Source: Candidatus Latescibacterota bacterium (GTDB taxonomy: Bacteria > Latescibacterota > UBA2968 > UBA8231). From it: 64,000 bases of DNA. A program made the translations under genes and the position numbers. The notes beneath the pieces were generated by a model. The model saw only the letters and a list, made by a program, of their open reading frames with translations. It made no database searches and was not told the origin of the DNA. Shown here in pieces: positions 2,858 to 47,774 of this stretch. Location of the stretch: positions 6,368,001 to 6,432,000 of the forward strand of contig OZ253462.1 in the NCBI GenBank assembly GCA_965261395.1, given 5' to 3'. How positions within the stretch are numbered: position 1 is the stretch's first letter; each line of letters starts with the position of its first letter.

Positions 2858-2948
2858 GACGATCTCCCATAGTCAAAGCCCTTTTAACTAGACCTTGCCT
2901 CCCTCTCCACGTCAAGCCTATATTCCCCGCCTAAAAGGACGACGCCCT

Positions 2949-7001: not shown

Positions 7002-7042
7002 TTGGGGAAGCGATGGCGGCGTGAATCTTTTGCTCTATCCGT

Positions 7043-7684: not shown

Positions 7685-7686
7685 AC

Positions 7687-8736
7687 CTATCGAACCTCAA
7701 GCCCGTGCCGAATCGCGGCACTGATTCCATTTGGCTTAAAGGTAACACAGCGATTTTCCGCGTCGCTGGCTTCGAGCCGGTGTAGGAGAAAGCCGTCAGG
7801 GCCAAGGGCTTGATGCGCCGCTTCTATACATTCAAAACTATGCGTGGTCGCAAATATCTGCGTGCGGAACTGCTTGGCCGCTTCATCAATAGCTCGCCAG
7901 ACATCGGACAGTACCGAGTGGTGAATGCCGTTTTCAACCTCATCCACTAGCACGACACCATCCGGTACGGAAGCTATGGCCAAAACAAGCCGGGCAATTT
8001 GGGTCATGCCTTCGCCCATTGCTGACAGCGGCACCAGTTCTGATAACCCAATATCCCCCCAGATCATGGGTATGCCGCTAGAGGAATTTTCCTCAATGCT
8101 TTGCAATCTCGGCTCGACAATCTGTAGTGCTTTTAATAGTAGAGCTCCCTGTTTCTTACGTCTCAACATTCCCAGCCTTGTGGCATCTCTGCGGATATTC
8201 CTAGTTCGAGACAAGAGAATTATTACACCAAGCGAGGCATTTGTAGTAGGCTGATTGATTTCAAATTCCTGTCCCTTCACACGTATCTGACTTTCGACGC
8301 GCTTCCCCGAAGGATCGATATACTGGAATGAGAGTGAACGTTCGCTGAAATCTGGCACCGAAGTTTCTTCCATAAGATCAAGAGCAGTCTCAGGAGTGGC
8401 TTGTCGCTCCGATGTGATTTTCAAAGCCAATTGACCATGCGACGTATGCTCTCCCTCAATCTCAATGGCCCGTTCCATGTCCAGATCAGAGAAGAGCTGT
8501 TTCCACAAGGGCCCAATCATAGCTGGCGATACTCTATTATCTAGTTCCAGGCCGCGAATAATGTTGACATTTCTTGCTAGACGTGCGTCTCCGGCTCCAA
8601 CTAGCAGAGAAATTGCCTCAAGTAAACTGGTCTTGCCGGAATTATTCTTGCCAGCAATGAGGTTAATGCCGCTCAATTGGTCGATTTCAAGCGCGTTGAA
8701 GCCGCGGAAATTCCGTATCTGCAAGCGTTTCAACAT
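7687..8736 (-). CDS. AAA_15/AAA_21 ABC-type ATPase
   Basis: IRNFRGF, GKNNSGKT, signature LSAMGEGM, Walker B VLVDEVENGIH, FATTHS. Confidence 0.88.
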   Translation of the reverse strand: MLKRLQIRNFRGFNALEIDQLSGINLIAGKNNSGKTSLLEAISLLVGAGDARLARNVNIIRGLELDNRVSPAMIGPLWKQLFSDLDMERAIEIEGEHTSHGQLALKITSERQATPETALDLMEETSVPDFSERSLSFQYIDPSGKRVESQIRVKGQEFEINQPTTNASLGVIILLSRTRNIRRDATRLGMLRRKKQGALLLKALQIVEPRLQSIEENSSSGIPMIWGDIGLSELVPLSAMGEGMTQIARLVLAIASVPDGVVLVDEVENGIHHSVLSDVWRAIDEAAKQFRTQIFATTHSFECIEAAHQALGPDGFLLHRLEASDAENRCVTFKPNGISAAIRHGLEVR

Positions 8737-9347: not shown

Positions 9348-10086
9348 AGTGTACCTGTTAGTCAAAATTAAGCTCGTCGGCGATATCCTCGACGGTTGCT
9401 CTGTGTTTTTCTGCCTTCTCGCGTTGTCGCTCTTCATCTTGTCGCCTACTCTCTAGGATTCTAGCTTCTTCCTCGTTAGTCTTACTAACACACAAAATCA
9501 AGGTTTCCCTATGATATTTCTTCACTTCGTCAATCGTCGTACCATCCAAGATAATCTTAGAACCGACCACTCTTGCAATACCCGGCCTATGCATCGTGGT
9601 AAATCTTGGTGGTGCGTTCCAGGTACTTACAAAAACCTCGGACCAAAGTGAAGAAGGCTGTCTGCTCAGACGAAAAGGCACAGTGTATAGTGCCGATCCC
9701 GGTGTACCATCCATAGTTGGTTCGGTGACTTCGTCGACAATGACGCCAACAATTTTGAGCGCATCGCTCGGAGACGATTCCTTCGTTTGCGGCTCTGAGC
9801 TAGTTTGCGAAGATCTCCGTAAAGGAGGAGCGATCGGCCTTTCCCCTAGCAATGTAGTAATTAAGTCTGAATAGTTCTCTTCGTACTTATCGGGTGAACT
9901 TAAGTCAATATAGTACTTACCCTTCAACCGTGAAGGGGCAGCATCTTCCCATGTCCCCCGAGCTAGGATCGGAATGAATTTTCGGTGATTGCGCCGGGAG
10001 TAAACCTCTGCCGTCATTATGTCCCCTTCATATCCAACGCCGCCCCTGCGTCCATCGGACCTAAGCCGGTAGTTAGGAGTACAAAC

Positions 10087-11271
10087 GGCTTTGTTGCATG
10101 AAAACCGGTCGGGGCCGTGTTGGCTTCTTTCGCGTGTGATTTACGCTTTTTTGGTTAGCGGATAGGACTCAGGTTTCGCCAACGCCCGCATCCGGTTGAG
10201 CAAGGCACAGCCCAACCGCGCTTCGGTCTGTTGGTTGGTTAGGGTTCGGGTGCGCAAGGTGTCACCAAGTATCTGTTTGTAGCGGCCTATCTGCGTTTCG
10301 GCTACCGAGCGTCGATGATAGCCGCTCTCGTGTTTCCAACCTCGACGGCCCCGTTTGCGGATGGCTCGAATCGTCTCATCGCGGGGCAACGGCTCGGCGT
10401 TGGTGTTGCCATGTTGCTCGATTTTGGCGTCCTTGCGCGGCGGAATGATCGGATGAATAGGTGCCCCCTGCTCGGGCGCGGCCAACGCCTTGAACACCTT
10501 GCGTTTGTCATAGGCCCCATCGCCGCCCAACGCCTCCACGGGGGCCTCGATCTGTGCCAGCAACGGCTCCACCTGCCCCGCATCATCGTGGCTATTCGTC
10601 GTCAAGGTCTGCGCGACGATCTCGCCGGTGGCTTCATTAACCCCGAGGTGCAATTTGCGCCACGTGCGCCGCTTGCTCCAGCCGTGCTGACGCACCTTCC
10701 ATTCGCCTTCGCCATACACTTTCAGCCCGGTCGAATCCACCACCAAGTGCATCGGTTGGTCTCCCCGCTGGGGCGGCCACGCCACGGCTAAACCCGCCTG
10801 ACGGCGCGACAGGGTCGTGTGATCGGGCACCCGCAGATCCAAGCCCATCAGGGCCAACACCGAAGCGACAAACCCCTCGGTTTGGCGTAGGGGCAAGTGA
10901 TACAAAAGACGCAGCGTCAACGCCGTTTGGATGGCGACCTCCGAAAAGGTATATTGCGCCCCCCGCTGAGGCGGCCCTTGATAATACCAAGCTTCGACGG
11001 CCTGGGGCGTGAACCACACCGTCAGACTACCGCGCTGTTGCAGCCCGGCCTCATAGTCGGCCCAATTACGTACCCGGTACACGACGTTGGAGCGACGGCG
11101 AGGCGAGCGACCAGGCTTGACGGAAGAGGGGCAAGACGATAGGTTGGCCATGACAGGTTCCTTGGACGAGAAAGCATGGGTTTTTTGGCGAAAGTCGTGC
11201 TCAATCTACTGAGGAGCCTGTTTTTATTCAACCGATCAACCGAAAAAAACACCAATTCATGCACCAAAGCC
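10087..11271 (-). mobile_element. IS5-family (IS903-like) insertion sequence, 1185 bp, copy 1
   Basis: TIRs GGCTTTGTTGCATGAA / GGCTTTGGTGCATGAA; 9-bp TSD AGTACAAAC at 10078-10086 and 11272-11280. Confidence 0.95.
10141..11151 (-). CDS. IS5-family DDE transposase
   Basis: YRVRNWADYEAGLQQRGSLTVW, LVVDSTGLKVYGEGEW, GDGAYD, YHRRSVAET motifs. Confidence 0.95.
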   Translation of the reverse strand: MANLSSCPSSVKPGRSPRRRSNVVYRVRNWADYEAGLQQRGSLTVWFTPQAVEAWYYQGPPQRGAQYTFSEVAIQTALTLRLLYHLPLRQTEGFVASVLALMGLDLRVPDHTTLSRRQAGLAVAWPPQRGDQPMHLVVDSTGLKVYGEGEWKVRQHGWSKRRTWRKLHLGVNEATGEIVAQTLTTNSHDDAGQVEPLLAQIEAPVEALGGDGAYDKRKVFKALAAPEQGAPIHPIIPPRKDAKIEQHGNTNAEPLPRDETIRAIRKRGRRGWKHESGYHRRSVAETQIGRYKQILGDTLRTRTLTNQQTEARLGCALLNRMRALAKPESYPLTKKA

Positions 11272-13437
11272 AGTACAAACGATCAGTACATAGTCGTTCT
11301 CGCGGATATGTCTTTCCATAAACTCTGGTAGCTGATCTCCCGGTACGGCATGCCACTGATCGAGGATTGTTTCGACGCCGTCATCTCGAAGATTCGTCGC
11401 CAATTTTGCGACCCACTCCTTGTGCTGATCATCATCCCATGAGTATGACATAAAGGCTTTAGGGGCACTCATCTGCCTTTGCTCCTTTCCGTATCTGCTA
11501 ATAGTTGATCTGAAAAATGCAATCCCCGCCCACGCTTCGTCTATCATCCCCTGATACCCCTCAATCTTCGCCACAATCTCTCGCTGCACTTCCAGAGGCG
11601 GCAGGGGAATTTTCAGCTCACAAAATTTTGATTTGGAAATTTCTTTGAACGTGCCACTGGCCCAAGCATTCATAGTGGGCACGAGTTCCGTCATAGCGAG
11701 AGCAATATATTCAGGTATCGCCCGCGATGGGTTTTTGATAATAATATTTTTGAACCCCTGATTCGTAGCCAACGGTATTCGATTGATGCCAATTCGACCT
11801 ATAGTGGCACGAGTTGAAACAATAACGGAGTTTTCTGGAATCAGCTTCGCTGACGATTTAGCAAGGCCGATCTCGCTAATTGTGCGCTGCGTAGTTCTAA
11901 TCTCAGCGACAAGCTCAGTTGGCGGTAAATCGACTAATGTAGCCCACGGTACGCCCCCATCCCAGTATTCCTCTACCCTGGACTTCGGCGTACCACCGCT
12001 TTCAATGCAAAAAAGCTCTGAATCACCTAGAGAAACCAGAGGAAATGAATGTTCGCTACGCTCATTCTCCCGGTACCTTTCCCTACTCAGACTATACTCC
12101 CCTCCCTCCGCAATCTTCTCCTTCTCGGCAATCAGCCCAAGCGCGGTTGTGTAATCCACTTTAGGTTCCGCCACACCACCGGCTAGCACCGACTCGCCCG
12201 CCCGCAGCCGCCCCAGATATTCGCCAAGCTCCTCCCTCACCTTTGGCAAGTCATTCTCCGCAATCTCCCGCCGCTGCGCCCCCAAATCAAACCCATCGTT
12301 CTCCACCTTAAAAAAGGCAATGCTGTCCGTCTTTTGCGCCAGCGCCTTGTCCAGCAGCAGAATGGATGTCTTGACCCCCGAATAGGGCTGGAACACGCCC
12401 GCCGGCAGCGAGATAACAGCCACCAGATAATTCTCCACCAGCATCTTGCGTAGCTGCTTATAGGCGGTCTGGCTCTGAAAGACAATGCCCTCCGGCACAA
12501 TGATACCGGCGCGCCCCGTAGGCGTCAGATGCTCGGCCATGTAATCGACAAACAGCACCTCGCTGCGTTTGGATTGCACTGAAAAACGACGGTGCGGACG
12601 GATGCCACCCTTCGGCGACATAAACGGCGGATTGGCCAAAATCACGTCGGCATACTCGTTCCAGCGCTCCTCGCTGGTCAGGGTGTCGTATTCGGAGATA
12701 TGCGGCTCGACAAAGCCGTGCAGATACAGATTCACCAGCGACAACCGCACCATATCAGGCGAAATGTCATACCCCTTGAAGTTAGCCGCGAGGGTCCCTT
12801 TTTCGTCCGGCGTCAGCGTACTGTTACCCTCGTCGTCAATATTGGACTTGAGAATGTGCTTGTACGACGAAATCAGAAACCCGGCAGTACCGCAGGCCGG
12901 GTCGAGAATGGTTTCGTCTTTCTTCGGGTCAACGACGGAGACAATGAAGTCGATGATATGGCGCGGAGTGCGGAACTGCCCGGCATCCCCCTGCGAGCCA
13001 AGAACCGAGAGCAGATATTCAAAGGCATCGCCCAGCCGCTCGCTGTGATCGTACGTAAACTCGTCGATAACCTTGAGAAAGGCGCGCAAAGTCTCTGGGT
13101 CGCGGTAGGGCAAATAGGCGTTGTTGAAGATGTCGCGGAACAGCGGCGGAATGCCCGGATTTTCCGGCATCCGGGTGATCGCCTCGGCGTACAGACTCAA
13201 AGTCTCGTGGCCGCCCAAACCAGCGCGCACCAGTTGCGGCCAGCCATAGCGGGCAAAGTCGCCGGCAAAAAACGTGCGCTGCCCGCCCATCTCCTCGCTC
13301 GCGGCGTCAATATCATCCATAAACTTGTAGATGAGCGCGATGGTAATCTGCTCTACTTGGCTTTTGGGATCGGGTACCTTGCCGACGAGGATGTCGCGGG
13401 CCGTGTCAATGCGGCGTTTGGTAGCGGTGTCGAGCAT
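11257..13437 (-). CDS. Type I R-M HsdM-HsdS fusion, copy A: only one TRD, runs in frame into the SEFIR N-terminus
   Basis: GQFRTP, DPACGTAGFL, ILANPPF (N6-MTase), then TRD1 and IPLPPLEVQREIV; no stop before MSAPKAFMSYSW. True start MLDTATK at 13437 by comparison with copy B. Confidence 0.85.
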   Translation of the reverse strand: MLDTATKRRIDTARDILVGKVPDPKSQVEQITIALIYKFMDDIDAASEEMGGQRTFFAGDFARYGWPQLVRAGLGGHETLSLYAEAITRMPENPGIPPLFRDIFNNAYLPYRDPETLRAFLKVIDEFTYDHSERLGDAFEYLLSVLGSQGDAGQFRTPRHIIDFIVSVVDPKKDETILDPACGTAGFLISSYKHILKSNIDDEGNSTLTPDEKGTLAANFKGYDISPDMVRLSLVNLYLHGFVEPHISEYDTLTSEERWNEYADVILANPPFMSPKGGIRPHRRFSVQSKRSEVLFVDYMAEHLTPTGRAGIIVPEGIVFQSQTAYKQLRKMLVENYLVAVISLPAGVFQPYSGVKTSILLLDKALAQKTDSIAFFKVENDGFDLGAQRREIAENDLPKVREELGEYLGRLRAGESVLAGGVAEPKVDYTTALGLIAEKEKIAEGGEYSLSRERYRENERSEHSFPLVSLGDSELFCIESGGTPKSRVEEYWDGGVPWATLVDLPPTELVAEIRTTQRTISEIGLAKSSAKLIPENSVIVSTRATIGRIGINRIPLATNQGFKNIIIKNPSRAIPEYIALAMTELVPTMNAWASGTFKEISKSKFCELKIPLPPLEVQREIVAKIEGYQGMIDEAWAGIAFFRSTISRYGKEQRQMSAPKAFMSYSWDDDQHKEWVAKLATNLRDDGVETILDQWHAVPGDQLPEFMERHIRENDYVLIVCTGFGA

Positions 13438-13438
13438 A

Positions 13439-14329
13439 TTAGGTCCGGTAAACGAATCCCTCTCCGATCTTCCACACCCCCTTCTCGCGGAAAGCGGGAA
13501 TGGTCTGGCGACGGGCGGCGTTGGTGACCGCAGGTGCCGAGAGCCCATGCTGTTTGATATAATCCGACAGCCGGATAATGGCCTCCCCCTGTAAATAGCT
13601 CAGCCTCTTATGCAGCGACTCTACGAGCGCCAACGCCATAATATCTTCCATCGTCCTAGTCGTTTGGCGGTCCCCATAGTCCCTGAACGCCTGATAGTAC
13701 CGCTCCTTTTCCGAGTTGCGGACAATAAGGCGCGGCAGTCCGAGCTGGATAAGTTGAAAATTGATGAAAACCCGCCCCAAGCGGCCATTGCCGTCGCAAA
13801 AGGGATGGATGGTCTCAAAATCCAAGTGGAATCGGGCAATCTTATCGAGGAAGTAGGTGCCAAGGTCGCTGGAATACTCGACGAGGATGTCATCTATCAT
13901 GCGCTCCACATGCTCGGGTGCCGGCGCGATATGAGTCCCCACCCGCACGTATTCCCCCTGCTCGCGAAAGCGTCCGGCGATGGCATCATTAATGCCGTCG
14001 ATGAGCATCTGATGCAAGAGTAGTATCAGGTCTTTGTTCAGTTCACTGTCTTTAGCTTTGGTGCGTTTGTATTCCGTGACGCGGGCTAGATTTTTCGCCT
14101 CGAAGACTTCCCGCACAGACACGTTTCGGGACAACATCTGCTCCAACAGGATTTTCTCTGTCTCCTCAAGGGTAAGAGTTGAATTCTCAATCGCGTTCGA
14201 GTTGTACACGCTCTCGGGGATCTCCACTTCGTCGATCATCGACAGCAGCGATTCCTTGCCTTGGCGCAAGGTATCGTACGTTCGTTTCAAGTCTTGGATG
14301 CGGCTTTTTATCGGCTGTGTGGTCGCCAT
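13439..14329 (-). CDS. Fic-domain protein (AMPylase) with C-terminal HTH
   Basis: Canonical Fic motif HPFCDGNGRLGR; SNAIENSTLT. Confidence 0.92.
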   Translation of the reverse strand: MATTQPIKSRIQDLKRTYDTLRQGKESLLSMIDEVEIPESVYNSNAIENSTLTLEETEKILLEQMLSRNVSVREVFEAKNLARVTEYKRTKAKDSELNKDLILLLHQMLIDGINDAIAGRFREQGEYVRVGTHIAPAPEHVERMIDDILVEYSSDLGTYFLDKIARFHLDFETIHPFCDGNGRLGRVFINFQLIQLGLPRLIVRNSEKERYYQAFRDYGDRQTTRTMEDIMALALVESLHKRLSYLQGEAIIRLSDYIKQHGLSAPAVTNAARRQTIPAFREKGVWKIGEGFVYRT

Positions 14330-35846: not shown

Positions 35847-36200
35847 TTGAGACTACCCAATGCACAACAGGCTCGCGTTGCTCCAGCGAAGATTACCGAC
35901 TATTTGCTTTCAGCAAGTCATCCAAAGGGTCGAGAAAAGGCTAACTTCTTTTCCCGCTTCGGCTTTCGCTCAGAACAATGGCAAATCTTTTCGAAGGCAT
36001 TACGAGTTCACGGAGAGAGCCATGAAGTTGTCGAGATTGAAGAAGGTAGCCACGGTATAATGTATGCTATAGAGGGATCGCTTGAGACTCCCAATGGACG
36101 CAACCCATATGTGCGGACTGTCTGGCAGATCGACAAGGGATGCGACCATCCTAGGTTCATTACGGCATATCCGGAGAGACAGATATGTTCAAGGAACTAG
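35847..36200 (+). CDS. DUF6883-like protein (predicted toxin/nuclease)
   Basis: KITDYLLSASHPKGREKANFFSRFGF...TPNGR...RTVW...PRFITAYP pattern. Confidence 0.75.
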   Translation: MRLPNAQQARVAPAKITDYLLSASHPKGREKANFFSRFGFRSEQWQIFSKALRVHGESHEVVEIEEGSHGIMYAIEGSLETPNGRNPYVRTVWQIDKGCDHPRFITAYPERQICSRN

Positions 36201-39200
36201 ACGTTATAGCGCTTACAACCGAAATTCCGCCTGATCGCATTTGGGATATCCCACCTAGCAGCCCGCTGAGCGAGAATCGCAATCTGGGGGAAGGGCTGAA
36301 AGTCGGCGACACCGGCACGATTGTATATATACAGGGTAATGAGGAAGCCCTCGAGGTTGAATTTCTGGGCCCAGACGGTAACACAGTAGCCATTGCCACG
36401 GTCTTGCCATCGCAGGCCCGCCTAGCAGAGCAAGAAGACCTCACTAAACGATCTCCTCAGAAAGAAGCCGGGGACGACCACAGGAACTACAACGAGCAGG
36501 ATATACGGGTCGGGGCCCTCGTTCAGTGGACAAGTCGCCCGGAAGCGTATGGCGTCGTAGCAAAAATTGAGGCCGGCCGGATCCATGTCCGATGGGATGA
36601 CGACGAGAATATCCCCACCCAATTTGTAGAATCAGGCCCGCCGCTTACTAGAGTGAAGCTCCAAAGAAAAACCCTTCAACGGCGGTCAACAGGCGAAAAG
36701 GCCACCGTGCTAGCCCCATTGCAGGCCGAGAAACCGGCTTGGGAGTGCTTTGTCGAGGGAGGGGAAACCATTAACGTCCCGGAGGCCGACCTAAGGCCCC
36801 TGCGTATCACTAACCCAGTTGAACGACTTAAGGTCGGCGAGATCGGCTCACTCCAACAGTACCGGCTTCAGCAAGTGACTAGGTCGTACCAGACGCTCCA
36901 TCTCTACGACGACCTGATTTCTCTAGGGCAGGTTGGAGTAGATATCAAGCCACACCAAGTGTCTGTGGTTCACAAGGTGATTAGCAACTATCCACACCGT
37001 TTTCTGTTGTGTGATGAGGTTGGCCTCGGGAAGACAATCGAGGCGGGAATGATCCTAAAGGAACTGCGGGCAAGAGGTGGTGCTCGGAGAGTCTTGATAA
37101 TTGTACCTCCCAGCCTAGTTCGCCAATGGCAGTTCGAAATGAAGACAAAGTTCAATGAGATTTTCGCCGTACTAAACAGAGATACTGTTAAATTCTTGGA
37201 GAACCAAGGTGACACAGGTAATCCCTTCCTGCACAGAGATAGCATTCTGTGTTCATCGGGATGGATTGTCAATGACAGCTGGGCGAAGGCCTGTACCGAG
37301 GTGGACTGGGATCTTATCATCGTGGACGAGGCTCATCATGCGCGACGGCAAGCCTCAGGCGAAATGGTCCGACTCTATCGACTCGTCCGAGACCTCGCGG
37401 ATCCGGAACATTGTACCAGCCGCGGGGTACTTCTTCTCACGGCAACGCCGATGCAACTCCACCCTTATGAGCTCTATTCACTCATAGAACTCCTCGACCC
37501 TGCTCTCTTCCCATCAGAAGAGCACTTTGAAAAACATCGTCAAGAGATGCCCGGCCTTTCCCAGTTTGTCGAAGACCTAAACCGCCATGAATTTAGGTTG
37601 CCGACCGAAAGCCTCAACGGGACGACCGAGAAGGTAGCAAACTGGCTTGACTCTGATGTCGAAGTGGTACGTAAACGACTCTCCGCCGGCATAGAAGAAC
37701 AGAAAAAAATCGCGAACGAACTCGCCGACCGACACCTCCTCAGCGAAGTGTTGATTCGGAATCGAAAGAGCGTGGTTGGCGGGTTCATGCCTCGCGTCGC
37801 CAACCGCTGGGAGGTTGAGTTAACAACGGAAGAACGCACAGCCCTGCAAGCCGTGGAAGAGTATGTCCAATACGGCTTTCAACTCGCCGATTTACATAGT
37901 GATAGGTCTGCTGGTTTTGTGATGGTTGTATATCAGAAGATGATGGCCTCCAGCATCGCCGCCATCCGAGAGTCGTTGAGTAGGCGTCGAGAGAAAATCG
38001 AAGCTGGCATCAAAGCCTCTTGGTCTTCCACCGATGTTACCGAGCTTGAAGAAAGACTAGATGCTGATGAGGACGCGAGTGATGTCGCTGGATCTGCCGG
38101 CATCGCGACGAAAGCTGAACTATCTCTCCTTGACAAAGCTATCAGGGCACTAGGACAAGTGAAAAGCGATTCAAAGTCGCGCGTACTGGTCGAACGGCTC
38201 ACCGAATTGTTTGATGATAGCCCGAATGGAGAGAAAGTGCTCGTATTCACTCAGTTCCGAGAAACCCAGCGGCACCTTGAAGACCTGATCAAAGATCAGG
38301 GTTGGGGTGTCAATATTTTTCATGGGGGGATGAAACCAGAAGAAAAGGATCGTGCCGTAGAACTTTTTAAAAACGATACCGGGCCCCAAGTCCTCATTAG
38401 CACCGAGGCCGGAGGCGAAGGCCGGAACTTTCAATTCTGCCATCTGCTTGTCAACTACGATCTACCTTGGAACCCGATGAAGGTCGAGCAGCGCATCGGC
38501 CGGGTCGATCGCATCGGCCAAGAGCATACAGTTAAAATCTTCAATCTCTGGGCCAAAGACACAATCGAAGAACGCGTCCTGGATGTACTCGAAAACCGCA
38601 TCAAAGTATTCGAGGAGACTGTGGGCGGACTTGATCCTATCCTCGGCGGGACTGAGGGTGACATCAAGAAAATCATGCGGCTGGCGATGGAAAAGCGGGA
38701 ATCTGCTCATAAAGAGTTTGGCAAACGAGTAGAGGGCGATGTCCGCCGCGCCCGAGAAGCCGAGGGGAAACTGGGCGACTTCATCATGGACACAAAGTCC
38801 TTCCGACGAGAGATCGCCGAACGAATCGCCGGGAAGCCCTCGCCGATAACCGATGATGCTCTCGATCTATTCATCGGTCAACTCCTCTCCGACAAGCGCA
38901 CATACATCAAACCTCGGGGAAATATCTATGAACTGACTTTTCGTGGTGAATTCGTCGAGACTCACAAAGATTTATTCCCCGTAGGATTGAAACAGAAAGT
39001 AGTATTCCGCCCGGATCAAAGACCCGACGCCGAGGATGTTGAGTTCATGACTTTCGGTCACCCAATAGTAGATGCAATTGTTGCATCAGTCCTCAGCGAA
39101 AGCTACGGGGGCACAACCGGCACTCGTCGTATTCCCGCCAGCGATGATCTCTCACCCACTTCCGGGTGGCTCTTCAACTACCAGCTCAAGGTTCCTGGAC

Positions 39201-40015
39201 CTCAACCCATAGAACATTTCGTGCCAGTTTTTATAAGTGACGCTGGGGAAGTAGACGAGGAGATTGGTCGCAACTTGGTCCGGCGAGCGTGTCGATTCGA
39301 GGACGTAGAACAGGGGATAGAACCGGCTGACATTCCCGATAATCTTGGCCAGATATCTGAGCTTGCCGACCAGTTCATTAACTCCAAGCAGGAGACACTC
39401 CAACAGCAGGCTGAGAGTCAAGCCACTGAGCGAATTGATAGGGAAGTCGCTAGACTAGAGAAATGGTTCGACTATAGAGAAACCTCCGCCAGGGACAAAG
39501 TAGAAGCGACTCATTCCACAGTAAGCCGCTTTCAAGAGAGCCACGAAGCGGCGCATCGCCAAATCTTGCCCGCCTGGGAAGACAGGCTCAGACGAGACGA
39601 GGAACTGCTCAGCAACTTACCAAAAGATCGCCAACGCCGGATCGACGAGTTGGAAAAATATCGGTATCCACAAGTCGCTTGGGCCCTTAACTCCCTCGGT
39701 CGCATTGAAGTAATCGCTGGTGGCGAGGACTGTACCCAAACGACGGAGGATAAGCCGATGGCTACTCAAGACCAAATAGATAATCACCGAAGGGAGTTAA
39801 TCAACGAATTTTGTGGTTTGTTGACGCAACACAAAGATTTTGTCAATACGACCACGGATGAGATTAAGGATATTCTAATACATAAAAGAGACAAAGATCG
39901 TTTCTCAGAGGAGGATATGACCAGAGCGCTTAAAACTTTTTTGAGGAAGCAAAAAGGAGTAAGTCCTCTCCGTGTGAGGGATATGTGGGAAATTAAGCCG
40001 CCGTTGAATCCATGA
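36185..40015 (+). CDS. DUF4926::SNF2-family (RapA/DrmD-like) helicase fusion
   Basis: N-terminal ELDVIAL...GLKVGDTGTIV...EVEF (DUF4926-like), then DEVGLGKT, DEAH, TATP, EGRNFQ, QRIGRVDRIGQ. Confidence 0.85.
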   Translation: MFKELDVIALTTEIPPDRIWDIPPSSPLSENRNLGEGLKVGDTGTIVYIQGNEEALEVEFLGPDGNTVAIATVLPSQARLAEQEDLTKRSPQKEAGDDHRNYNEQDIRVGALVQWTSRPEAYGVVAKIEAGRIHVRWDDDENIPTQFVESGPPLTRVKLQRKTLQRRSTGEKATVLAPLQAEKPAWECFVEGGETINVPEADLRPLRITNPVERLKVGEIGSLQQYRLQQVTRSYQTLHLYDDLISLGQVGVDIKPHQVSVVHKVISNYPHRFLLCDEVGLGKTIEAGMILKELRARGGARRVLIIVPPSLVRQWQFEMKTKFNEIFAVLNRDTVKFLENQGDTGNPFLHRDSILCSSGWIVNDSWAKACTEVDWDLIIVDEAHHARRQASGEMVRLYRLVRDLADPEHCTSRGVLLLTATPMQLHPYELYSLIELLDPALFPSEEHFEKHRQEMPGLSQFVEDLNRHEFRLPTESLNGTTEKVANWLDSDVEVVRKRLSAGIEEQKKIANELADRHLLSEVLIRNRKSVVGGFMPRVANRWEVELTTEERTALQAVEEYVQYGFQLADLHSDRSAGFVMVVYQKMMASSIAAIRESLSRRREKIEAGIKASWSSTDVTELEERLDADEDASDVAGSAGIATKAELSLLDKAIRALGQVKSDSKSRVLVERLTELFDDSPNGEKVLVFTQFRETQRHLEDLIKDQGWGVNIFHGGMKPEEKDRAVELFKNDTGPQVLISTEAGGEGRNFQFCHLLVNYDLPWNPMKVEQRIGRVDRIGQEHTVKIFNLWAKDTIEERVLDVLENRIKVFEETVGGLDPILGGTEGDIKKIMRLAMEKRESAHKEFGKRVEGDVRRAREAEGKLGDFIMDTKSFRREIAERIAGKPSPITDDALDLFIGQLLSDKRTYIKPRGNIYELTFRGEFVETHKDLFPVGLKQKVVFRPDQRPDAEDVEFMTFGHPIVDAIVASVLSESYGGTTGTRRIPASDDLSPTSGWLFNYQLKVPGPQPIEHFVPVFISDAGEVDEEIGRNLVRRACRFEDVEQGIEPADIPDNLGQISELADQFINSKQETLQQQAESQATERIDREVARLEKWFDYRETSARDKVEATHSTVSRFQESHEAAHRQILPAWEDRLRRDEELLSNLPKDRQRRIDELEKYRYPQVAWALNSLGRIEVIAGGEDCTQTTEDKPMATQDQIDNHRRELINEFCGLLTQHKDFVNTTTDEIKDILIHKRDKDRFSEEDMTRALKTFLRKQKGVSPLRVRDMWEIKPPLNP

Positions 40016-40346
40016 GCGCCACTTGGTTGCACTGATGGTATTACTGTCGCCTGCCTCTGTTCAGTATAATCCCCCCGCGTTACAAGCAACGGCTGCTGGC
40101 TGCCGGTCGCCGTGATCGCGGCCGCTGAAAGGCAAAGGAAGACACTACCTCGTCCGCTGATCGCCCGATGGCCTATCCAGCGGCACGCCCCATAGGAAGG
40201 ATCGGTAATTTGTCACTTATCGTAGTCGTATGCCTGACGGCTCTCGTAGCAACCGCGCCGCTTTTTGCCCAGGAGAGGGAAGAGTCCGCCGCCGGTATCG
40301 AAGTTTCCCAGTGAAGCACTGTCCATTGGCCCGGAATTCAGTCTTA

Positions 40347-41432
40347 TTGACCTCTGCATTTTTAAAGGAATAGTTTATATTCATTTATATGAGACCTAAA
40401 GGTAGTGCCGATCGGCTGGAATATCGTCGTCAATGGGCGGCTCAGTTGCTTGATGCCGGCAAAGGCGTCAACGAAGTAGCTCGTCTGGTCCAAGTCTCCC
40501 CTTCCTCGGTGTCTCGTTGGAAGTCGATGAAAGCGCAAGCCGGCGAGGCGGGACTCAAAGCCAAACCGCATCCGGGTCGGGGCTGTCAGTTGAGTCCCCA
40601 AGACAAGGATCAGTTGAAACAGCTTCTACTCCAAGGTCCCCAGGCGGCTGGCTTTGATAGCGCGCTGTGGACCTGTCGGCGTGTCGCGCAGGTGATGGCC
40701 CAAACGTTTGGGGTGTCCTATCATCCCGATCACGTGGGTCGTCTGCTGCATGGGTTGGGTTTTTCATGCCAGTATCCCCAGCACCGGGCGCGCGAACGGG
40801 AGGAGGAGGCCATCCGCCAATGGCGCTTAGTGGAGTGGCCGCGGATTAAAAAAAAGCCCGGCACCAGGGGGCGACCATCGCCTTGATGGATCAGAGCGGC
40901 TTCATGCTGCAACCCACCCGTCGTAGGACGTGGGCTTTGTCGGGTCACACGCCCATACACAAGGTGTGGGATCGCCACGATCGCTTGTCGGTTCAGGCCG
41001 CCGTTACCTTGCCGCCTCGGCGCCAGCGGTTGGGCGTTTATTTCCGAATGTATGAGCATAATATCGACCGGCAGGATGTGGTATCCTTTGTCGGTCATCT
41101 GCTGCGTATGATACGACGCAAGGTCGTGCTCATTTTGGATCGGTGGAGTGTCCATCGCGCCGCGGTGGCGGTATTGCACAAAAGGTATCCGGATCGACTC
41201 ACCATCGAATGGTTGCCCGCCTATGCACCCGAATTGAATCCGGCTGAACAGGTCTGGAATCATACTAAGTATGGCGATCTAGCCAACTTCATTCCAGACC
41301 ACATCGACGACGTAGCAGATGCGGTCTGCATGTCAATCACCGCCCAGCATCACGATAACGACCTGATTCGAGGCTTCTTCAAGTATGCACAACTTAAACT
41401 GTAAAACATTCCTTTATATTTGCAGGACTCAA
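40347..41432 (+). mobile_element. IS630-family insertion sequence
   Basis: TA target duplication (40345-46, 41433-34); imperfect TIRs TTGACCTCTGCATTTTTAAAGGAAT / TTGAGTCCTGCAAATATAAAGGAAT. Confidence 0.88.
40389..41404 (+). CDS. IS630 transposase (HTH ORF 40389-40886 + DDE ORF, joined by a -1 frameshift)
   Basis: A8G slippery run at 40848-40856; DQSGF, ILDRWSVH, LPAYAPELNPAE motifs. Confidence 0.88.
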
Positions 41433-41621
41433 TAGTAGAGCTTCATCGAAGAATGGATTCGCCTTCAACACCCTTTATCTAGGCGGTCGGGGTGCCTTCT
41501 CTCTGCGGGTCAACACGATGTCCGGGGCCTATGTCCTTGTACAGGGGGCTCTTTCGGTTGTAAACAATGGGGCCAGTACCGCTATATAATTGCTAATAAG
41601 CCCCTACCAGGAGAAATATAG

Positions 41622-41816
41622 ATGGAATGGTTAAAGAATATAGCTATTAATCTAAGAGCCACTGGCCCTGCTGCTGTAATAATAGTATGGCTTATATGCT
41701 CCACTGTATTAGGAATATGGGGTAATGGACCGCAAGCAAAAAACGCTATGCTGCTTATGTTTTTTGCGGGGGGTGGAATTATTATATCCCTATCTAGGAA
41801 AGTCAAGGATAGCTAG
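41622..41816 (+). CDS. Small two-TM membrane protein
   Basis: AGGAG RBS; two hydrophobic segments; AT-rich. Confidence 0.6.
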   Translation: MEWLKNIAINLRATGPAAVIIVWLICSTVLGIWGNGPQAKNAMLLMFFAGGGIIISLSRKVKDS

Positions 41817-41939
41817 AGGCGGCATGTTTGTGTGCGCTGGTCTCCTTGGCAAAAACCGTGCCAACCACCCCTTATTTTTCGTACTCACCCACTACCCGAA
41901 ATTCAGCCGACACATCTAACCTAAAAAGGAGATTATCTC

Positions 41940-42416
41940 ATGGCACTCAGATTCAATACGTTGGTTCGGCACGACCGACCCGATATCACCGGCCTAGAGG
42001 AGGCCGCTGATTTCGTGCGCACAAAGACGGCTGATTTAGAGTCGATGGTGTTCATGTCTCACAAGACTGGCGACATCCATGCGGAGATAGAGGCAATGCG
42101 CATCGCTGAAAAGCACCACGTGCGGGTATATATGGCCGAATGGGACGAAAATGTAGTTGGCGACACAGACGAACTGCCCGACCAAATTATGGACGCTATT
42201 CAGGAAAGCGACGCATTCTTGGTCCATGTAATAGCTCAGATCAAAAACTCGATGTGGATTGGGTACGAAATTGGTGGGGCACACGCTATGAGCAAGGAGC
42301 GGGCCAGGATCATGCACACCAAGATAGATGATGATGATCTGATCTCCGTCGTGAGAGCCTTAGATCCCTTGGGTACTCCGTTTGAAGTGGACTCTTGGAT
42401 CAGACGCAACGCATAA
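41940..42416 (+). CDS. Stand-alone TIR-domain protein
   Basis: VFMSHKTGD, IQESDAFLV, SMWIGYEIG (catalytic Glu of the WxxxE motif); AAGGAG RBS. Confidence 0.8.
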   Translation: MALRFNTLVRHDRPDITGLEEAADFVRTKTADLESMVFMSHKTGDIHAEIEAMRIAEKHHVRVYMAEWDENVVGDTDELPDQIMDAIQESDAFLVHVIAQIKNSMWIGYEIGGAHAMSKERARIMHTKIDDDDLISVVRALDPLGTPFEVDSWIRRNA

Positions 42417-42433
42417 TTGAGAGGTGGAATAGG

Positions 42434-42892
42434 ATGTGTTCCAACAACATCGACATCCAGTTCGAGACGTACAAGCTTCACGCCGAGCTTGCAGAGCGGG
42501 TAGCCCATATCAGAGAGAGCCTGAACAGGTTGTATTCGGGCATGGTCGTCGGTCTCGTTGCAGCGATGGTCCTCGTGAACCGACTCGCTACAGGAACGGA
42601 GAACCGACTCGCTATAGAGACGGATATAACTTGGTTGTTTTACGCACTTGGTGCTGTGATATCTATAACGTGGATGCTCTCGATACATTCGGTGAGGGGC
42701 CGGCTGAAGGCAAAGCACGCCGTTTTGGTGGCCCTGGAGGATAAGCTACCATTCAAATTTCTGCGCCAAGAAGAAGAGGAGTACAACAAGGGGTGTTTGG
42801 TCTTGAGAAGGTCGTGGTCAGGGGTGGTGATGCCGTCGCTCTTATTAATCTATTGCATCGTGCAGCTAATTCAATATTTTTTCTGCGGCTGA
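42434..42892 (+). CDS. Multi-TM membrane protein resembling RipA/8xMP- or Pycsar-TM-type pore-forming effectors
   Basis: FETYKLHAELAERV...NRLY-TM-TM-W...KAKHAVLVALEDKLP...TM pattern; GAGG RBS; starts 17 nt after the TIR stop. Confidence 0.65.
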   Translation: MCSNNIDIQFETYKLHAELAERVAHIRESLNRLYSGMVVGLVAAMVLVNRLATGTENRLAIETDITWLFYALGAVISITWMLSIHSVRGRLKAKHAVLVALEDKLPFKFLRQEEEEYNKGCLVLRRSWSGVVMPSLLLIYCIVQLIQYFFCG

Positions 42893-43411
42893 GGCGAGAA
42901 GCACCCACACAGGCACAAAACAGCAAAAATCGCGGTCGGGGGCCGTCGATTGGGACATGCCCCCCCTCGATTTCCTACCCGCGCTCCATCCTCTGCCCTG
43001 CCGCTGGCCGCGCCCCAGGCCCTACCGCCGCCGTCCCGACCACTCACCGACCCCACCAGCCCACCGCCCCACGCCGCGCTAGCTAGCCGAGGCCGTCCCC
43101 GCGCTGTCCGCGCCGCTCCCACCAACCCCATGCACCGCACCGGCCCAACCCTCGCCAGTGCCGCCGATCCGCGCCGAGGTCGCCCACCGTGCCCCCGTCG
43201 AGGCCGTCCGCCGCTGGCCGTCCGCCGCCGTCCCGATCCCGACCGCCCCGCTTCGCCCCCCATCAAGCCCGTCGAACCGGCCCGCAAAGAAAGTTCTTGA
43301 CTTGCTCAAATCACTCCATATATCCCAAAGTATCCGCCCTGTTGGTGGTGTGCCTGATCGCGTTTAACGAGCCTGCACCGCGTTGGATCCACCCCGAACC
43401 CCGAGAGCCGC

Positions 43412-43684
43412 TGTAACGCCGTCTAATCGACGAGCGGCCCAAGACGCCCGAACACACCGGCCAGCCCGAGGACGTGGGCGAGCGACGCAAAAGCGCGACG
43501 GGATTGGGTAAAGTTGCCGCTCAGAGCGTTTCCGCCGGCGTCCGCGATCGGCCGCAGCTCGGGGCCCAGCTCGTAACCTGCTTATTCCCGCCGATCCACC
43601 GCCCCAGACGCCGCCAGACGTAGCCGGCCGCCTCGATGCCAGCGACACCCCCGGACGCCGGCGCACGGCTCAGACGGCGTTACA
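43412..43684. mobile_element. Possible MITE / IS-end remnant bounded by 13-bp inverted repeats
   Basis: TGTAACGCCGTCT (43412-43424) and AGACGGCGTTACA (43672-43684); TG...CA ends; no TSD seen. Confidence 0.45.
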
Positions 43685-46152
43685 TCACCCCAAGGTCGCT
43701 TCAACTCTGTGCCGCACGGTACGATCAACGCAGTAGGGTGAGCTTGCGCGTCAGGACGCCCTCGGTCGTTACCAGCCTATATAGGTAGATGCCGCTGGCC
43801 AGGGGGCGGCCCTCCTCGTCCTGGGCATTCCAGTGGAGGCGGTGATAGCCGGCCTGCTGCGGTCCTTGGCGTAAGACCGCCACCCGCTGCCCGATCACCG
43901 AGAACAGTTCTAGGCGCGTCGGCCCCGATTTCGGCAGGAAGTAGGAGAGGACCGTCTCGCTGTTGAACGGGTTGGGCACGTTCTGCTCAAGCTGCACCGT
44001 AGTTGGCTGGGCGGCTAGCGGCTTGGCACTGCCTTGTTCGATCTCGAAACGAAGGATCTCGGTAAAGTCCGCCAAGAACTTGTTTTGAGCTTTGTCCCAT
44101 ACCGTCATCTCAGCCAGCCCCCAAGTTCCAGGGACACTGCCTACCGGCAAGGTGATGGTGTACTCATACGTCTCGTACACCGTCGGATCGCCTTCAAAAT
44201 AGACCTTGTAATAGTCGTGCCGGTGATGCCTAAAAAAATGCTCTACGCCTTGGGGATCGCGTAAGTACATGTCGGTAGACCGATAGCCGCTGATATTGTC
44301 TTTGACTTTGAAGGTGATATCGACCCTCGTCTCTCCATTGGGAGTCTCCTTGTTAGTCGGTTCAGCCTCAATCGTGATGTTGTTTAGGTCGAGTGTGGGC
44401 CGTTGAGTATCCGGAGTGGTCGTCTGGATAGTGATAGAGGCCGGTTCTTCGTCAATGACTCGTTGCTCTTCTCTTAGCCCGTGTCCTGGATGGGTGAAGT
44501 ACACGCCACGGCCGTTGAGTGCAATATCTTCCATTATTATATAGTTGAGTTTCCACACGCCGCTGGGGAAGTAATCAGGAACCACCATATCAACAGAAGC
44601 GATCCCCGTTGCATGATCATAATCGCCCCAATTTTCTGAACGACGAGAAGCGGTCTCGGCGTCCCCATCGTTGAGCTGAGCCAACACTCCGTTTATGCCA
44701 TTGGCCTCAAAAAGCTTCCATTGAGCGGTCAATATCTGATACGGCCTCCCCGCTTCGGTGGCATCCCTGAGAGATAGCTCCATCGAATTCTTGACATAGA
44801 CCGGGGGGTCGGTGTCGGCGAGTGGATTGTCAATATACAACTTCCAACCAAAATCGGCCTGCGATTCGTGTCGTTCGTTGCCATGTCGGTCTGTAAGCGT
44901 GATCTGATCGGGTCGCCAGTAGCCATCAGCGATATACTTGGAAAGCGTGATCCTCCCGCGCAAGATATAGCCTATTTCAATGCGCCGGCCGTTGGTATCA
45001 ACAGGATCAAGCCAAAGATCAAAGAAGGTGCCTTTATCGCTGAAGATCCTCAGTTGAGACGCATCGACCAAGTCCAAGTCGCCCTCTTGGTGAAGCTCAA
45101 TTTCTATCGTTATCTCTTTATCTTCCTCCGGCTCGCCCTCGACTTGTATATCAACGCGCACGATTCGCCCCGGGTACACCACATCGGGATACAGATTGTA
45201 CACCTCAAAGGTCAGATCCTCACGAATCCGTGAGATATAGCGCGTCCCATGCATGATCCTGTTCTGTATGAACTCATACTTGGCGGGCGCTCTTGAGCGC
45301 AGCTTATCCGGCGTTACGATATAATAGCTGATGCTCTCGGCCATGTCCTCATCGGGATTTTTTGCATGGGCATAGGCAGAGACAAACTCGGTCTGCTTGG
45401 TCGTAGACCATCCCTCCTGGTCGCGCGAGCTGGCGAAACTTGCAGGGCCACCGGCTGAGGGTGCACAGCCTTGCTCAAGGACATCGAACAAGGATCCCGA
45501 TAAGAGGACCTCTTGACAGCGAGTGTCCTCTTCTTGCCCCTGGTCGGCTATGTTGCCATCGCTTTTATACCACCCTCCTAATTCGATCCAGTCTTGCTTG
45601 AGCTGCTCATCAAACAGATGCTCCCAGAGAAAGTGTGCCTTCTCGTGAAGGATCAAGCGGTGCATATAGGCTGGCCCAGACTCTTTGAAAGCTGATTCCA
45701 TGAACTCGATATAGCCTTCGGTTGTCCATGCCACCGCCGGCGCAGCGGGATAAAGAGGATGGGGTGTCCCATCTAGCCGGCGAACCAAGTAATTCAGACC
45801 GGCCGTATGACGCATTCCACTGGGAAACTCTTCCAGCATGGAGGCAATCGAAATCAGCTCTTCATTCTTGAATTCGGCGAAACGGCTCGAAGACTCCTTT
45901 GTCGTATTCTTTGTCAGCTCACGATAGTCCGGCACGTTCAAGCTGATGGCATAGCGCTCTTGCAATATACGTTCCAGCGCATGTCGATCGGAGCCATTAT
46001 CCGTTACAAACCGGACTACAGCACGATGGAGTCTTTTAGAAAAGAAACGCCCACGAACCCCTTCTATTTCAGCTAAAAGAGGTTCGGCGTAGGTGAAAGC
46101 CTCTCGGGCAACCGTTACGCGCCGTTGCCCATCCTCTACTGTGATCTGAATA

Positions 46153-47337
46153 GGCTTTGGTGCATGAATTGGTGTTTTTTTCGGTTGATCGGTTGAATAA
46201 AAACAGGCTCCTCAGTAGATTGAGCACGACTTTCGCCAAAAAACCCATGCTTTCTCGTCCAAGGAACCTGTCATGGCCAACCTATCGTCTTGCCCCTCTT
46301 CCGTCAAGCCTGGTCGCTCGCCTCGCCGTCGCTCCAACGTCGTGTACCGGGTACGTAATTGGGCCGACTATGAGGCCGGGCTGCAACAGCGCGGTAGTCT
46401 GACGGTGTGGTTCACGCCCCAGGCCGTCGAAGCTTGGTATTATCAAGGGCCGCCTCAGCGGGGGGCGCAATATACCTTTTCGGAGGTCGCCATCCAAACG
46501 GCGTTGACGCTGCGTCTTTTGTATCACTTGCCCCTACGCCAAACCGAGGGGTTTGTCGCTTCGGTGTTGGCCCTGATGGGCTTGGATCTGCGGGTGCCCG
46601 ATCACACGACCCTGTCGCGCCGTCAGGCGGGTTTAGCCGTGGCGTGGCCGCCCCAGCGGGGAGACCAACCGATGCACTTGGTGGTGGATTCGACCGGGCT
46701 GAAAGTGTATGGCGAAGGCGAATGGAAGGTGCGTCAGCACGGCTGGAGCAAGCGGCGCACGTGGCGCAAATTGCACCTCGGGGTTAATGAAGCCACCGGC
46801 GAGATCGTCGCGCAGACCTTGACGACGAATAGCCACGATGATGCGGGGCAGGTGGAGCCGTTGCTGGCACAGATCGAGGCCCCCGTGGAGGCGTTGGGCG
46901 GCGATGGGGCCTATGACAAACGCAAGGTGTTCAAGGCGTTGGCCGCGCCCGAGCAGGGGGCACCTATTCATCCGATCATTCCGCCGCGCAAGGACGCCAA
47001 AATCGAGCAACATGGCAACACCAACGCCGAGCCGTTGCCCCGCGATGAGACGATTCGAGCCATCCGCAAACGGGGCCGTCGAGGTTGGAAACACGAGAGC
47101 GGCTATCATCGACGCTCGGTAGCCGAAACGCAGATAGGCCGCTACAAACAGATACTTGGTGACACCTTGCGCACCCGAACCCTAACCAACCAACAGACCG
47201 AAGCGCGGTTGGGCTGTGCCTTGCTCAACCGGATGCGGGCGTTGGCGAAACCTGAGTCCTATCCGCTAACCAAAAAAGCGTAAATCACACGCGAAAGAAG
47301 CCAACACGGCCCCGACCGGTTTTCATGCAACAAAGCC
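46153..47337 (+). mobile_element. IS5-family (IS903-like) insertion sequence, 1185 bp, copy 2
   Basis: Same TIRs and length as copy 1, opposite orientation; 9-bp TSD ATCTGAATA at 46144-46152 and 47338-47346. Confidence 0.95.
46273..47283 (+). CDS. IS5-family DDE transposase
   Basis: Protein identical to 10141-11151. Confidence 0.95.
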   Translation: MANLSSCPSSVKPGRSPRRRSNVVYRVRNWADYEAGLQQRGSLTVWFTPQAVEAWYYQGPPQRGAQYTFSEVAIQTALTLRLLYHLPLRQTEGFVASVLALMGLDLRVPDHTTLSRRQAGLAVAWPPQRGDQPMHLVVDSTGLKVYGEGEWKVRQHGWSKRRTWRKLHLGVNEATGEIVAQTLTTNSHDDAGQVEPLLAQIEAPVEALGGDGAYDKRKVFKALAAPEQGAPIHPIIPPRKDAKIEQHGNTNAEPLPRDETIRAIRKRGRRGWKHESGYHRRSVAETQIGRYKQILGDTLRTRTLTNQQTEARLGCALLNRMRALAKPESYPLTKKA

Positions 47338-47774
47338 ATCTGAATATCATGCTCTATATGGTCATCGCTTAATTCCCAAAAGGAAGGGACTACTTGGGGT
47401 TCATCCTCGTAAGAATCATTAGTATCCTGTGGTATAGATTCAAAAGTTCGCATCAAGCTATAGGCTTCTTGGGCCGTCCATGCGGTATCAAGATGGACAG
47501 AGTATTCCATCCTTAATTGCAAGGATGCACTGTGCGAAGTAACGTCCACGACTTCATCTAAAAGCTCTACCTGTACCGGCTCGATAAGGCTTGCGCTTTC
47601 AGTGCCGGAGATCGTCTCATCTATCTCCCAATGGTACGTATAGGCTTCGCTTTGGGAGGCTAAGACGCCAGACGCCAACGAGAAAACAACTGCGAGAGTG
47701 CGTATCATACTCAACCTGCTGTGTGATGGGTGATTAGCATGGACTTCTTGCCAAGATAGGAGATTCCCCTGTTA

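Follow-up and report, generated by a model that had tools for sequence, protein, structure and literature searches.

We analyzed a 64,000-nucleotide stretch of DNA (here called the window) from a Candidatus Latescibacterota bacterium (assembly GCA_965261395.1, contig OZ253462.1, positions 6,368,001 to 6,432,000). Within it, three open reading frames (ORFs) between window positions 41622 and 42892 had been read, on the basis of the sequence alone, as one cassette for antiphage signaling. The ORFs encode proteins of 64, 158, and 152 residues. As that sequence-only reading had stated, all three lie on the + strand, and each is preceded by an AGGAG- or GAGG-like ribosome-binding site. Do these genes belong together? 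Our analysis indicates that the second and third genes, which encode a TIR protein and a member of the membrane protein family 8xMP (PF24838), form a conserved pair. The first is an orphan.

The TIR gene and its membrane protein neighbor

The TIR gene (41940..42416, + strand) encodes a stand-alone, ThsB-like protein of 158 residues. This protein matches Pfam TIR_2 with an E value of 3.8e-6 and 27.8 bits (cut-off, 28), matches Pfam ThsB_TIR weakly, and is recognized by seven PADLOC ThsB models, the top one being PDLC00436 (E value of 6.5e-11). An AlphaFold2 model made from 39 relatives (predicted local distance difference test [pLDDT] score, 86.6; predicted template modeling score, 0.85) has a TIR fold. 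Compared with solved structures, the model matched 26 chains at E ≤ 1e-3, nearly all of them TIR domains (SARM1, SPARTA, BcThsB 8btn_B, and TLRs). The top structural matches were SARM1 and SPARTA, which are NADases, and proteins of related folds, DNPH1 and nucleoside 2-deoxyribosyltransferase, were also among the matches. Against Protein Data Bank (PDB) sequences, the TIR profile gave no match, and the single TIR sequence gave one chance match (IsdH, E value of 0.77).

A search of 5.8 billion proteins returned 175 relatives of the window TIR, nearly all of ∼156 residues. In the alignment of 39 relatives, residues F38, S40, H41, W106, G108, Y109, and E110 are invariant, and the motifs VFMSHKTGD and SMWIGYEIGGAH are almost constant. 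Glu110, located within SMWIGYEIGGAH, is the candidate for the catalytic glutamate that had earlier been described as intact. Because the TIR_2 score lies under the cut-off and the sequence matches no solved chain, this putative catalytic role is assigned on the basis of the fold, the invariance of the residue, and what we take to be the catalytic TIR motif.

The end of the TIR stop codon (42416) and the ATG of the next gene (42434) are separated by 17 nucleotides. This second gene (42434..42892, + strand) encodes the 152-residue protein, the proposed membrane effector, which has the three transmembrane (TM) segments that had been noticed from the sequence (hydrophobic residues ∼33 to 55, 65 to 84, and 127 to 152). 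The ATG is consistent with the N termini of 16 relatives; an upstream TTG start at 42395 was considered and rejected, as the N termini of homologs agree with the ATG. The resemblance to 8xMP proteins proposed earlier is one of family membership: the protein matches PF24838 with an E value of 2.1e-12 and 47.5 bits (cut-off, 30) over profile positions 1 to 130 of 136, and it is also grouped in 8xMP clusters of the ESM Atlas. The family comprises about 1,000 representative clusters at 50% identity. The window protein sits on a divergent branch of it; other members from the host phylum score 108 to 139 bits. No Macro, SLOG, or SAVED domain was found in the protein by Pfam, in agreement with the sequence-only reading, and neither PADLOC nor NCBIfam contains a family that fits it.

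The model of the 8xMP protein is all-helical (pLDDT score, 74.7), with helices at residues 2 to 54, 58 to 102, 109 to 119, and 126 to 151. A Foldseek comparison of the monomer model with the PDB gave no match at E ≤ 1e-3, and the 8xMP profile found no solved relative among PDB sequences, GldL alone appearing at an E value of 0.64. The full name of PF24838 is “Octameric membrane protein family (8xMP),” and the number eight comes from this name only; a prediction of a four-copy complex scored 0.10 (mark, 0.42) and counts neither way. Literature searches for the family, by its names and its Pfam accession, turned up no relevant paper. Conservation along the protein is uneven. Of 37 residues invariant in the 8xMP subfamily, 29 fall in the N-terminal helix (residues 1 to 32) and the TM2-TM3 linker (residues 85 to 126). 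In a comparison of 60 distant members, W80 and E102 did not vary, and Y13, K14, R27, K94, E113, and P134 hardly did. Both segments are predicted to face the cytoplasm on account of their many Lys and Arg residues.

Conservation of the TIR-8xMP pair

Is the adjacency of these two genes conserved? A genome scan from the 8xMP side, covering one genome per prokaryotic species, yielded 20 loci with close relatives of the window 8xMP (28 to 53% identity), labeled as Latescibacterota, Pseudomonadales, Binatia, Thermodesulfobacteriota, Terriglobia, Alphaproteobacteria, Spirochaetia, Gemmatimonadota, and others. A TIR gene was present on the same strand within ∼2.3 kb at 16 of these 20 loci, under at least eight phylum-level labels, upstream of the 8xMP gene at some loci and downstream at others. 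Close relatives of the window TIR were found upstream of 8xMP at L003 (as two tandem copies), L016, and L017, and the remaining TIR-positive loci carried different ThsB_TIR or TIR_2 proteins. At L014, a transposase-like ORF of the UPF0236 family lies between the two genes; L007 is counted among the 16 solely through a weak match to a custom TIR profile (E value of 1.5e-3). When metagenomes were scanned from the TIR side, an 8xMP gene was located directly downstream at 6 of 6 loci (3 distinct sequences).

In the host phylum, 21 of 168 genomes have a PF24838 match over the cut-off, and 6 of 30 other genomes of the genus have one at E ≤ 0.001. Among the 24 8xMP genes of the phylum that scored over the Pfam cut-off, 16 had a TIR gene within 1.5 kb. 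Several of these loci carry more than one TIR gene: the layout at L031 to L034 is ThsB_TIR - 8xMP - TIR_2 - TIR_2, and at L037 and L042 two ThsB_TIR genes precede one 8xMP gene, so that these loci have two to four TIR genes for each 8xMP gene. Two ThsB_TIR-8xMP pairs stand in tandem at L035/L058. At L056, a pair of ThsB_TIR and SLATT/DUF4231 genes is followed by a ThsB_TIR-8xMP pair, so that 8xMP stands there in the position of a known Thoeris effector, SLATT.

The pair is also carried by plasmids. A canonical 8xMP, taken from L031, had matches in 36 plasmid records and in one record of a phage collection, whose accession was identical to that of one of the plasmids; among 134 pattern matches to the 8xMP alignment in viral contigs, none encoded a relative. 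An annotated TIR gene was found directly upstream of 8xMP in 7 of 11 inspected plasmids, which come from cultured bacteria and an archaeon (the seven are from Synechococcus, Paenarthrobacter, Clostridium perfringens, Halorubrum, Novosphingobium, Haematospirillum, and Polaromonas), and a TIR gene within 2.6 kb of 8xMP in an Acaryochloris plasmid brings the number of plasmids with a TIR nearby to 8.

The genome under study has a second 8xMP gene of its own, for a 202-residue protein, 4.9 Mb away at L001 (G000:C1:1488444-1491917). The ORFs at 1462-2070, 2070-2459, and 2491-3078 of this locus encode the 8xMP, a 129-residue nucleoside 2-deoxyribosyltransferase-like protein, and a 195-residue ThsB-like TIR, respectively. 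A DDE transposase adjoins them, and the gene order is unlike that of the window cassette. Since Pfam locates only about six TIR places in the whole 6.55-Mb genome, two TIR-8xMP adjacencies arising by chance are very unlikely. The TIR and 8xMP genes are a real two-gene module that is conserved across phyla, and gene-neighborhood conservation, which the sequence-only reading had named as a check on its proposal, bears the pairing out.

The distribution of the module points to mobility. The window TIR type was found elsewhere in the phylum only in G053 (the same two tandem copies as at L003) and as two weak matches in G082 (E value of ∼4.5e-12), and it was found in none of the 30 other genomes of the genus. 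Such a patchy occurrence in phylum and genus suggests horizontal acquisition. Genes neighboring the related loci encode type I restriction-modification (R-M) subunits, Mrr, HNH, and caspase-family proteins, and toxin-antitoxin systems.

Two further arrangements were observed around 8xMP genes. A block of the order 8xMP - ThsB_TIR - Nmad2 (PF18753) recurs in distant phyla at seven loci (L005 to L009, L013, and L022); L004/L086 has Nmad2 with no detectable TIR. The scan took in the next ORF at L005, L006, and L008, and at all three the gene following Nmad2 encodes MazG_C (PF18722). The genes 8xMP - ThsB_TIR - Nmad2 - MazG_C may form one unit of four, or they may belong to two systems that are linked. 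On a Clostridium perfringens plasmid (NZ_CP065633.1, L069), the order is caspase - TIR - 8xMP - TIR, and on a Paenarthrobacter plasmid (L068) a caspase-family gene is located three genes upstream of the TIR-8xMP pair; these arrangements resemble a type IV Thoeris effector and an 8xMP that share TIR sensors.

A Thoeris-like reading and its alternatives

What could a TIR protein and a small membrane protein do together? We think it probable that the two genes make up a Thoeris-like module for abortive infection, with 8xMP as its signal-gated membrane effector. The 158-residue TIR would sense infection and would use Glu110 to turn NAD+ into an ADP-ribose-derived signal. The 152-residue 8xMP would reside in the inner membrane with its N terminus inside, its amphipathic, conserved N-terminal helix and TM2-TM3 linker being exposed to the cytoplasm. 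A ring oligomer of 8xMP would bind the signal on the cytoplasmic face, presumably through the conserved cytosolic residues, and would then breach or depolarize the membrane, stopping phage growth at the expense of the cell. The Thoeris-like design is suggested by the small ThsB-like TIR, by the interchangeable and multiple TIRs per 8xMP, by the presence of 8xMP in the place of SLATT, and by the defense-island neighbors. Both domain assignments, the conserved adjacency, the multiple TIRs per 8xMP, the patchy, mobile spread of the module, and the clustering of conserved residues on the predicted cytoplasmic side are findings of the analysis; that the TIR acts as an NADase or a cyclase, what signal it makes, that 8xMP oligomerizes and forms a pore, and that the pair protects against phage are inferences of the model.

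As far as can be judged from the sequence, the pair has the make-up of a generic Thoeris system, that is, a TIR protein with the glutamate, a conserved adjoining candidate effector, and often several ThsB genes per effector. How does it compare with the described types? It is not type I Thoeris, which has the SIR2 and SLOG effector ThsA, as no match to SIR2, SLOG, or ThsA was found in the three ORFs or in 16 neighboring ORFs (31.1 to 52.9 kb). According to the main text of a December 2025 preprint on Thoeris, type II systems combine a TIR with a Macro-TM effector that responds to His-ADPR (10.64898/2025.12.03.692087). The proposed TIR-8xMP model shares with type II the activation of a membrane-disrupting effector by a TIR-made signal; it differs in that the 152-residue protein has no Macro match at E ≤ 1 and is too short to contain a Macro domain. 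CBASS or Pycsar systems with a TM effector do not fit either, as no CD-NTase or Pycsar cyclase was found among the three ORFs and the 16 neighbors.

Other likenesses are offered by systems with small membrane effectors. ThsF of type V Thoeris (DUF2270; PF10028) is described in the text of the same preprint as a three-TM protein modeled as a heptameric ring with charged pockets between protomers and triggered by 3′cADPR, and type VII pairs ThsB with the membrane-only protein ThsH, a SLATT protein (10.64898/2025.12.03.692087). Like type V, the window has a small TIR gene beside a gene for a small three-TM protein with no soluble sensor domain, and like type VII it combines a TIR with a membrane-only protein. 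However, the window 8xMP has no match to PF10028 or SLATT at E ≤ 1, and hhalign gave a probability of 7% for DUF2270 (only two sequences) and 0.4% for SLATT (the single SLATT/DUF4231 protein of L056). DUF2270 was found in none of the 168 genomes of the host phylum. The passages on type II Metis in another preprint describe MisC as a three-TM protein with no annotated domain, modeled as an octameric pore gated by m6dAMP bound in its intracellular part, which is paired with the HAD phosphatase MisB and senses m6dAMP (10.1101/2025.11.05.686725). Compared by description only, MisC shares the three-TM architecture of 8xMP, and its predicted octamer parallels the Pfam family name. It differs in its partner, a HAD phosphatase, and in its trigger, which is m6dAMP and not a TIR product; no HAD gene was found among the neighbors in the window, at the scanned 8xMP loci, or among annotated neighbors in the inspected plasmids.

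At the sequence level, the candidate effector 8xMP thus has no match in SIR2-SLOG, Macro, DUF2270, or SLATT, the families that were tested, and the pair is most probably a Thoeris variant with an uncharacterized membrane effector family. PADLOC-DB 2.0.0 recognizes only the TIR of the cassette, as ThsB, and would therefore call no complete system, an outcome that had been put forward beforehand as favoring novelty. The earlier proposal of a non-canonical Thoeris-like system stands for a module of two genes, not for the three-gene make-up it had been given. The word “non-canonical” needs qualification, as the main text of the Thoeris preprint already extends Thoeris to the small membrane-only effectors ThsF/DUF2270 and ThsH/SLATT (10.64898/2025.12.03.692087).

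A Thoeris-like mechanism would not by itself make the pair new. The December 2025 preprint scanned ∼600 million proteins for genes adjacent to TIR genes and presents 29 putative and 11 verified Thoeris types (Yirmiya et al. 2025; 10.64898/2025.12.03.692087). There is close to an even chance that TIR-8xMP is already among these types, and the pair may have been catalogued there with no family name. It could be type IX, whose effector ThsJ is not assigned to a family in the text, or one of the “variety of proteins with TM-spanning helices” of Figure 1C; ThsK, an ion channel, and ThsL, a hydrolase, are further effectors named in that text. The Pfam annotations used in the preprint were taken from IMG and pfam_v32 (10.64898/2025.12.03.692087). 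A screen of TIR neighbors would be hard pressed to miss a pair as frequent and widespread as this one. Presumably, those annotations are older than PF24838, in which case an 8xMP effector would show in the preprint as an unnamed TM protein. On the other hand, neither “8xMP” nor “PF24838” occurs in the main text of the preprint, as distinct from its figures and supplementary tables, and we found no paper on PF24838.

The roles of the two proteins could also be reversed, with the TIR acting as a toxic, NAD+-depleting effector and 8xMP as its sensor, anchor, or regulator, and with no diffusible signal. According to the text of the Thoeris preprint, CBASS, Pycsar, SPARTA, and other systems use TIR domains as effectors with NADase activity (10.64898/2025.12.03.692087), and, as described above, the NADases SARM1 and SPARTA head the structural matches of the TIR model. 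We nevertheless regard reversed roles as unlikely. Single 8xMP genes are found with more than one TIR gene and with TIRs of several families, as expected if many sensors feed one effector; 8xMP takes the SLATT effector position at L056; and the strongest family matches of the TIR are to ThsB models.

Several observations weigh against the reading of the pair as a Thoeris-like module with 8xMP as its effector. The authors of the Thoeris preprint themselves caution that in unverified types the TIR may be the NAD+-depleting effector (10.64898/2025.12.03.692087). The window TIR scores 0.2 bits under the TIR_2 cut-off and has no sequence or profile match to a solved chain; it carries Ile at the otherwise nearly invariant position of Pro135 and an insertion of three Asp residues relative to its homologs. 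The 8xMP protein has no recognizable ligand-binding domain. Not every 8xMP gene has a TIR partner: no TIR was detectable at 4 of the 20 loci of the genome scan (L004, L010, L015, and L020), within ±1.5 kb of 8 of the 24 8xMP genes of the phylum (L036, L039, L040, L045, L046, L048, L049, and L057), or, by annotation, in 3 of the 11 inspected plasmids. Of 400 gammaproteobacterial genomes sampled, 14 had an 8xMP over the cut-off, and of the 11 loci scanned (three fragments, L087 to L089, were left out), only L078 had TIR neighbors. Two of these loci, L082 and L084, share the housekeeping-like order S1 - Sua5/YciO/YrdC - 8xMP with no TIR. In the 859-residue protein P0202, an 8xMP domain (residues 10 to 147) is fused to an AAA_21/AAA_15 ATPase, and on a Rhizobium plasmid the gene directly upstream of 8xMP encodes an NB-ARC protein and not a TIR.

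The AAA ATPase fusion and the NB-ARC neighbor suggest that the 8xMP family works with partners other than TIR proteins too, and some of its members may have a role outside defense. Taken over the whole family, 8xMP is not tied to TIR; a strong link holds for the branch of the window gene, for the host phylum, and for plasmids. Could the pair then have nothing to do with defense, 8xMP being a general housekeeping membrane protein and the TIR-like protein an enzyme that processes nucleotides or nucleosides and belongs to the same fold superfamily? The S1 - Sua5/YciO - 8xMP context in the two gammaproteobacterial genomes, the matches of the TIR model to DNPH1 and nucleoside 2-deoxyribosyltransferase, and the nucleoside 2-deoxyribosyltransferase-like protein at the paralogous locus L001 are consistent with such a role. 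It is contradicted by the patchy, mobile distribution, by the R-M, Mrr, HNH, caspase-family, and toxin-antitoxin neighbors, and by ThsB models being the top matches of the TIR, and we consider it very improbable.

If the module does signal through 8xMP as we propose, TIR-based immune signaling gains one more effector family, a protein of 150 residues that reads a nucleotide and breaches the membrane would be among the smallest receptor-effectors known, and 8xMP would be a simple model for signal recognition with no dedicated sensor domain. The gain would be incremental, because the principle of a TIR joined to a small membrane effector is already in print. The family ranges over sponge-associated uncultured lineages, cyanobacteria, actinomycetes, clostridial plasmids, and haloarchaea. 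A more specific version of the model, which we put forward tentatively and hold to be possible, is that 8xMP is a minimal signal-gated pore of ∼150 residues in which Y13, K14, R27, K94, E102, and E113 would read the TIR-made nucleotide and the ring would kill the cell. The pair would then be an uncharacterized Thoeris type, possibly with a distinct signal, and the 8xMP module, which might be related to MisC, would be reused with other sensors in bacteria and archaea.

Chromosomal setting of the cassette

The window is part of one contig of 6,549,484 bases and also contains murB and other housekeeping genes, and tblastn of its TIR and 8xMP against 72,556 plasmid records gave no match. The cassette is thus set in an insertion sequence (IS)-rich stretch of the chromosome, and not in the plasmid-like element that had been suggested. 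Its left border is an IS630-family element (40345..41434, + strand) with the transposase in two frames (40389-40886 and 40883-41404; Pfam HTH_33 and DDE_3). Two inverted IS5-family copies (10082-11271 and 46153-47342; 1,190 nucleotides each) are 100% identical, and the 34.9-kb segment between them contains a type I R-M system, housekeeping genes, an SNF2 helicase gene, and the cassette.

This setting raises the question of whether the window copy is a remnant that is no longer active, left behind between insertion sequences, or whether its two genes do not cooperate here. The cassette directly adjoins the IS630 element, and the 34.9-kb region is bracketed by the identical, inverted IS5 copies. 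In the TIR, Pro135 is replaced by Ile, and there is the Asp-repeat insertion, a DDDD run from a GAT-repeat stretch at ∼42327-42340, just ahead of the Pro135 position. The 8xMP gene contains a 24-nucleotide tandem duplication in its TM1-TM2 loop (42577..42624, + strand; Tandem Repeats Finder, 2.0 copies, 87% matches), which is an insertion relative to most homologs. No promoter-like site was found directly ahead of the TIR gene. However, both reading frames are intact and have ribosome-binding sites, and all other invariant residues are retained in both proteins; the duplication keeps the frame and falls in a loop that also varies in length among relatives. Furthermore, contigs from four runs of four studies show no difference from the window sequence from 41407 on (to 42072-43741, depending on the run). 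We consider a remnant, or a lack of cooperation between the two genes, improbable at this locus.

The contigs of those four other runs break at the IS630 element, where depth is far higher and loose ends lie at ∼40341-40344 and 41434-41436. In the four metagenome runs, the contig depth of the IS630 copy (40324-41439) was 6- to 600-fold above that of its flanks, with many variants; the element is high-copy in those communities.

The 64-residue ORF (41622..41816, + strand), which the sequence-only reading had placed in the cassette as a two-TM protein, exists and has one strong and one weaker hydrophobic stretch. It is not part of the TIR-8xMP system. The search of 5.8 billion proteins returned a single relative (81 residues, 53% identity); tblastn did not find the ORF in the other fetched loci, and at six related loci the region ahead of the TIR gene contains no small hydrophobic ORF. 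Its G+C content is 40%, and that at third codon positions is 34%, versus 61% and 65% at third positions in the two core genes. The ORF is probably a real small gene and is an unlinked orphan. A promoter-like site, TAAACA-18-TATAAT (41561..41590, + strand), matches the consensus only and is the sole such site on the + strand ahead of the TIR gene (three sites were found versus 1.8 expected by chance). As this weak match sits upstream of the 64-residue ORF, the ORF may be cotranscribed with the cassette at this locus.

Directly left of the cassette, a DUF6883 gene overlaps the start of a gene for a 1,276-residue DUF4926-SNF2 helicase (35847-40015, + strand). In PADLOC, this helicase matches BrxHI (1.3e-109) and DrmD (1.4e-85); no other BREX or DISARM genes were seen near it. 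To the right, an 830-nucleotide stretch of 65 to 71% G+C (42893-43724) extends from the 8xMP gene to the next gene and contains short GC-rich repeats; its ORFs are all of low complexity. An Rfam scan of 40000-46200 gave only a subthreshold match to sR36 (25 bits versus 55).

Elsewhere in the window, a 763-residue protein (11257-13548, − strand) has an N6 DNA methylase and a type I specificity domain fused to a TIR/SEFIR domain at the C terminus. Of the TIR, profile positions 2 to 59 of 122 remain, and the ORF ends inside an IS5 arm; the IS5 insertion seems to have truncated the domain. At 4590-8736, more genes are defense-like and encode an AAA_16 ATPase, an NYN-domain protein, and a DUF3226 protein paired with an AAA_15/AAA_21 ATPase.

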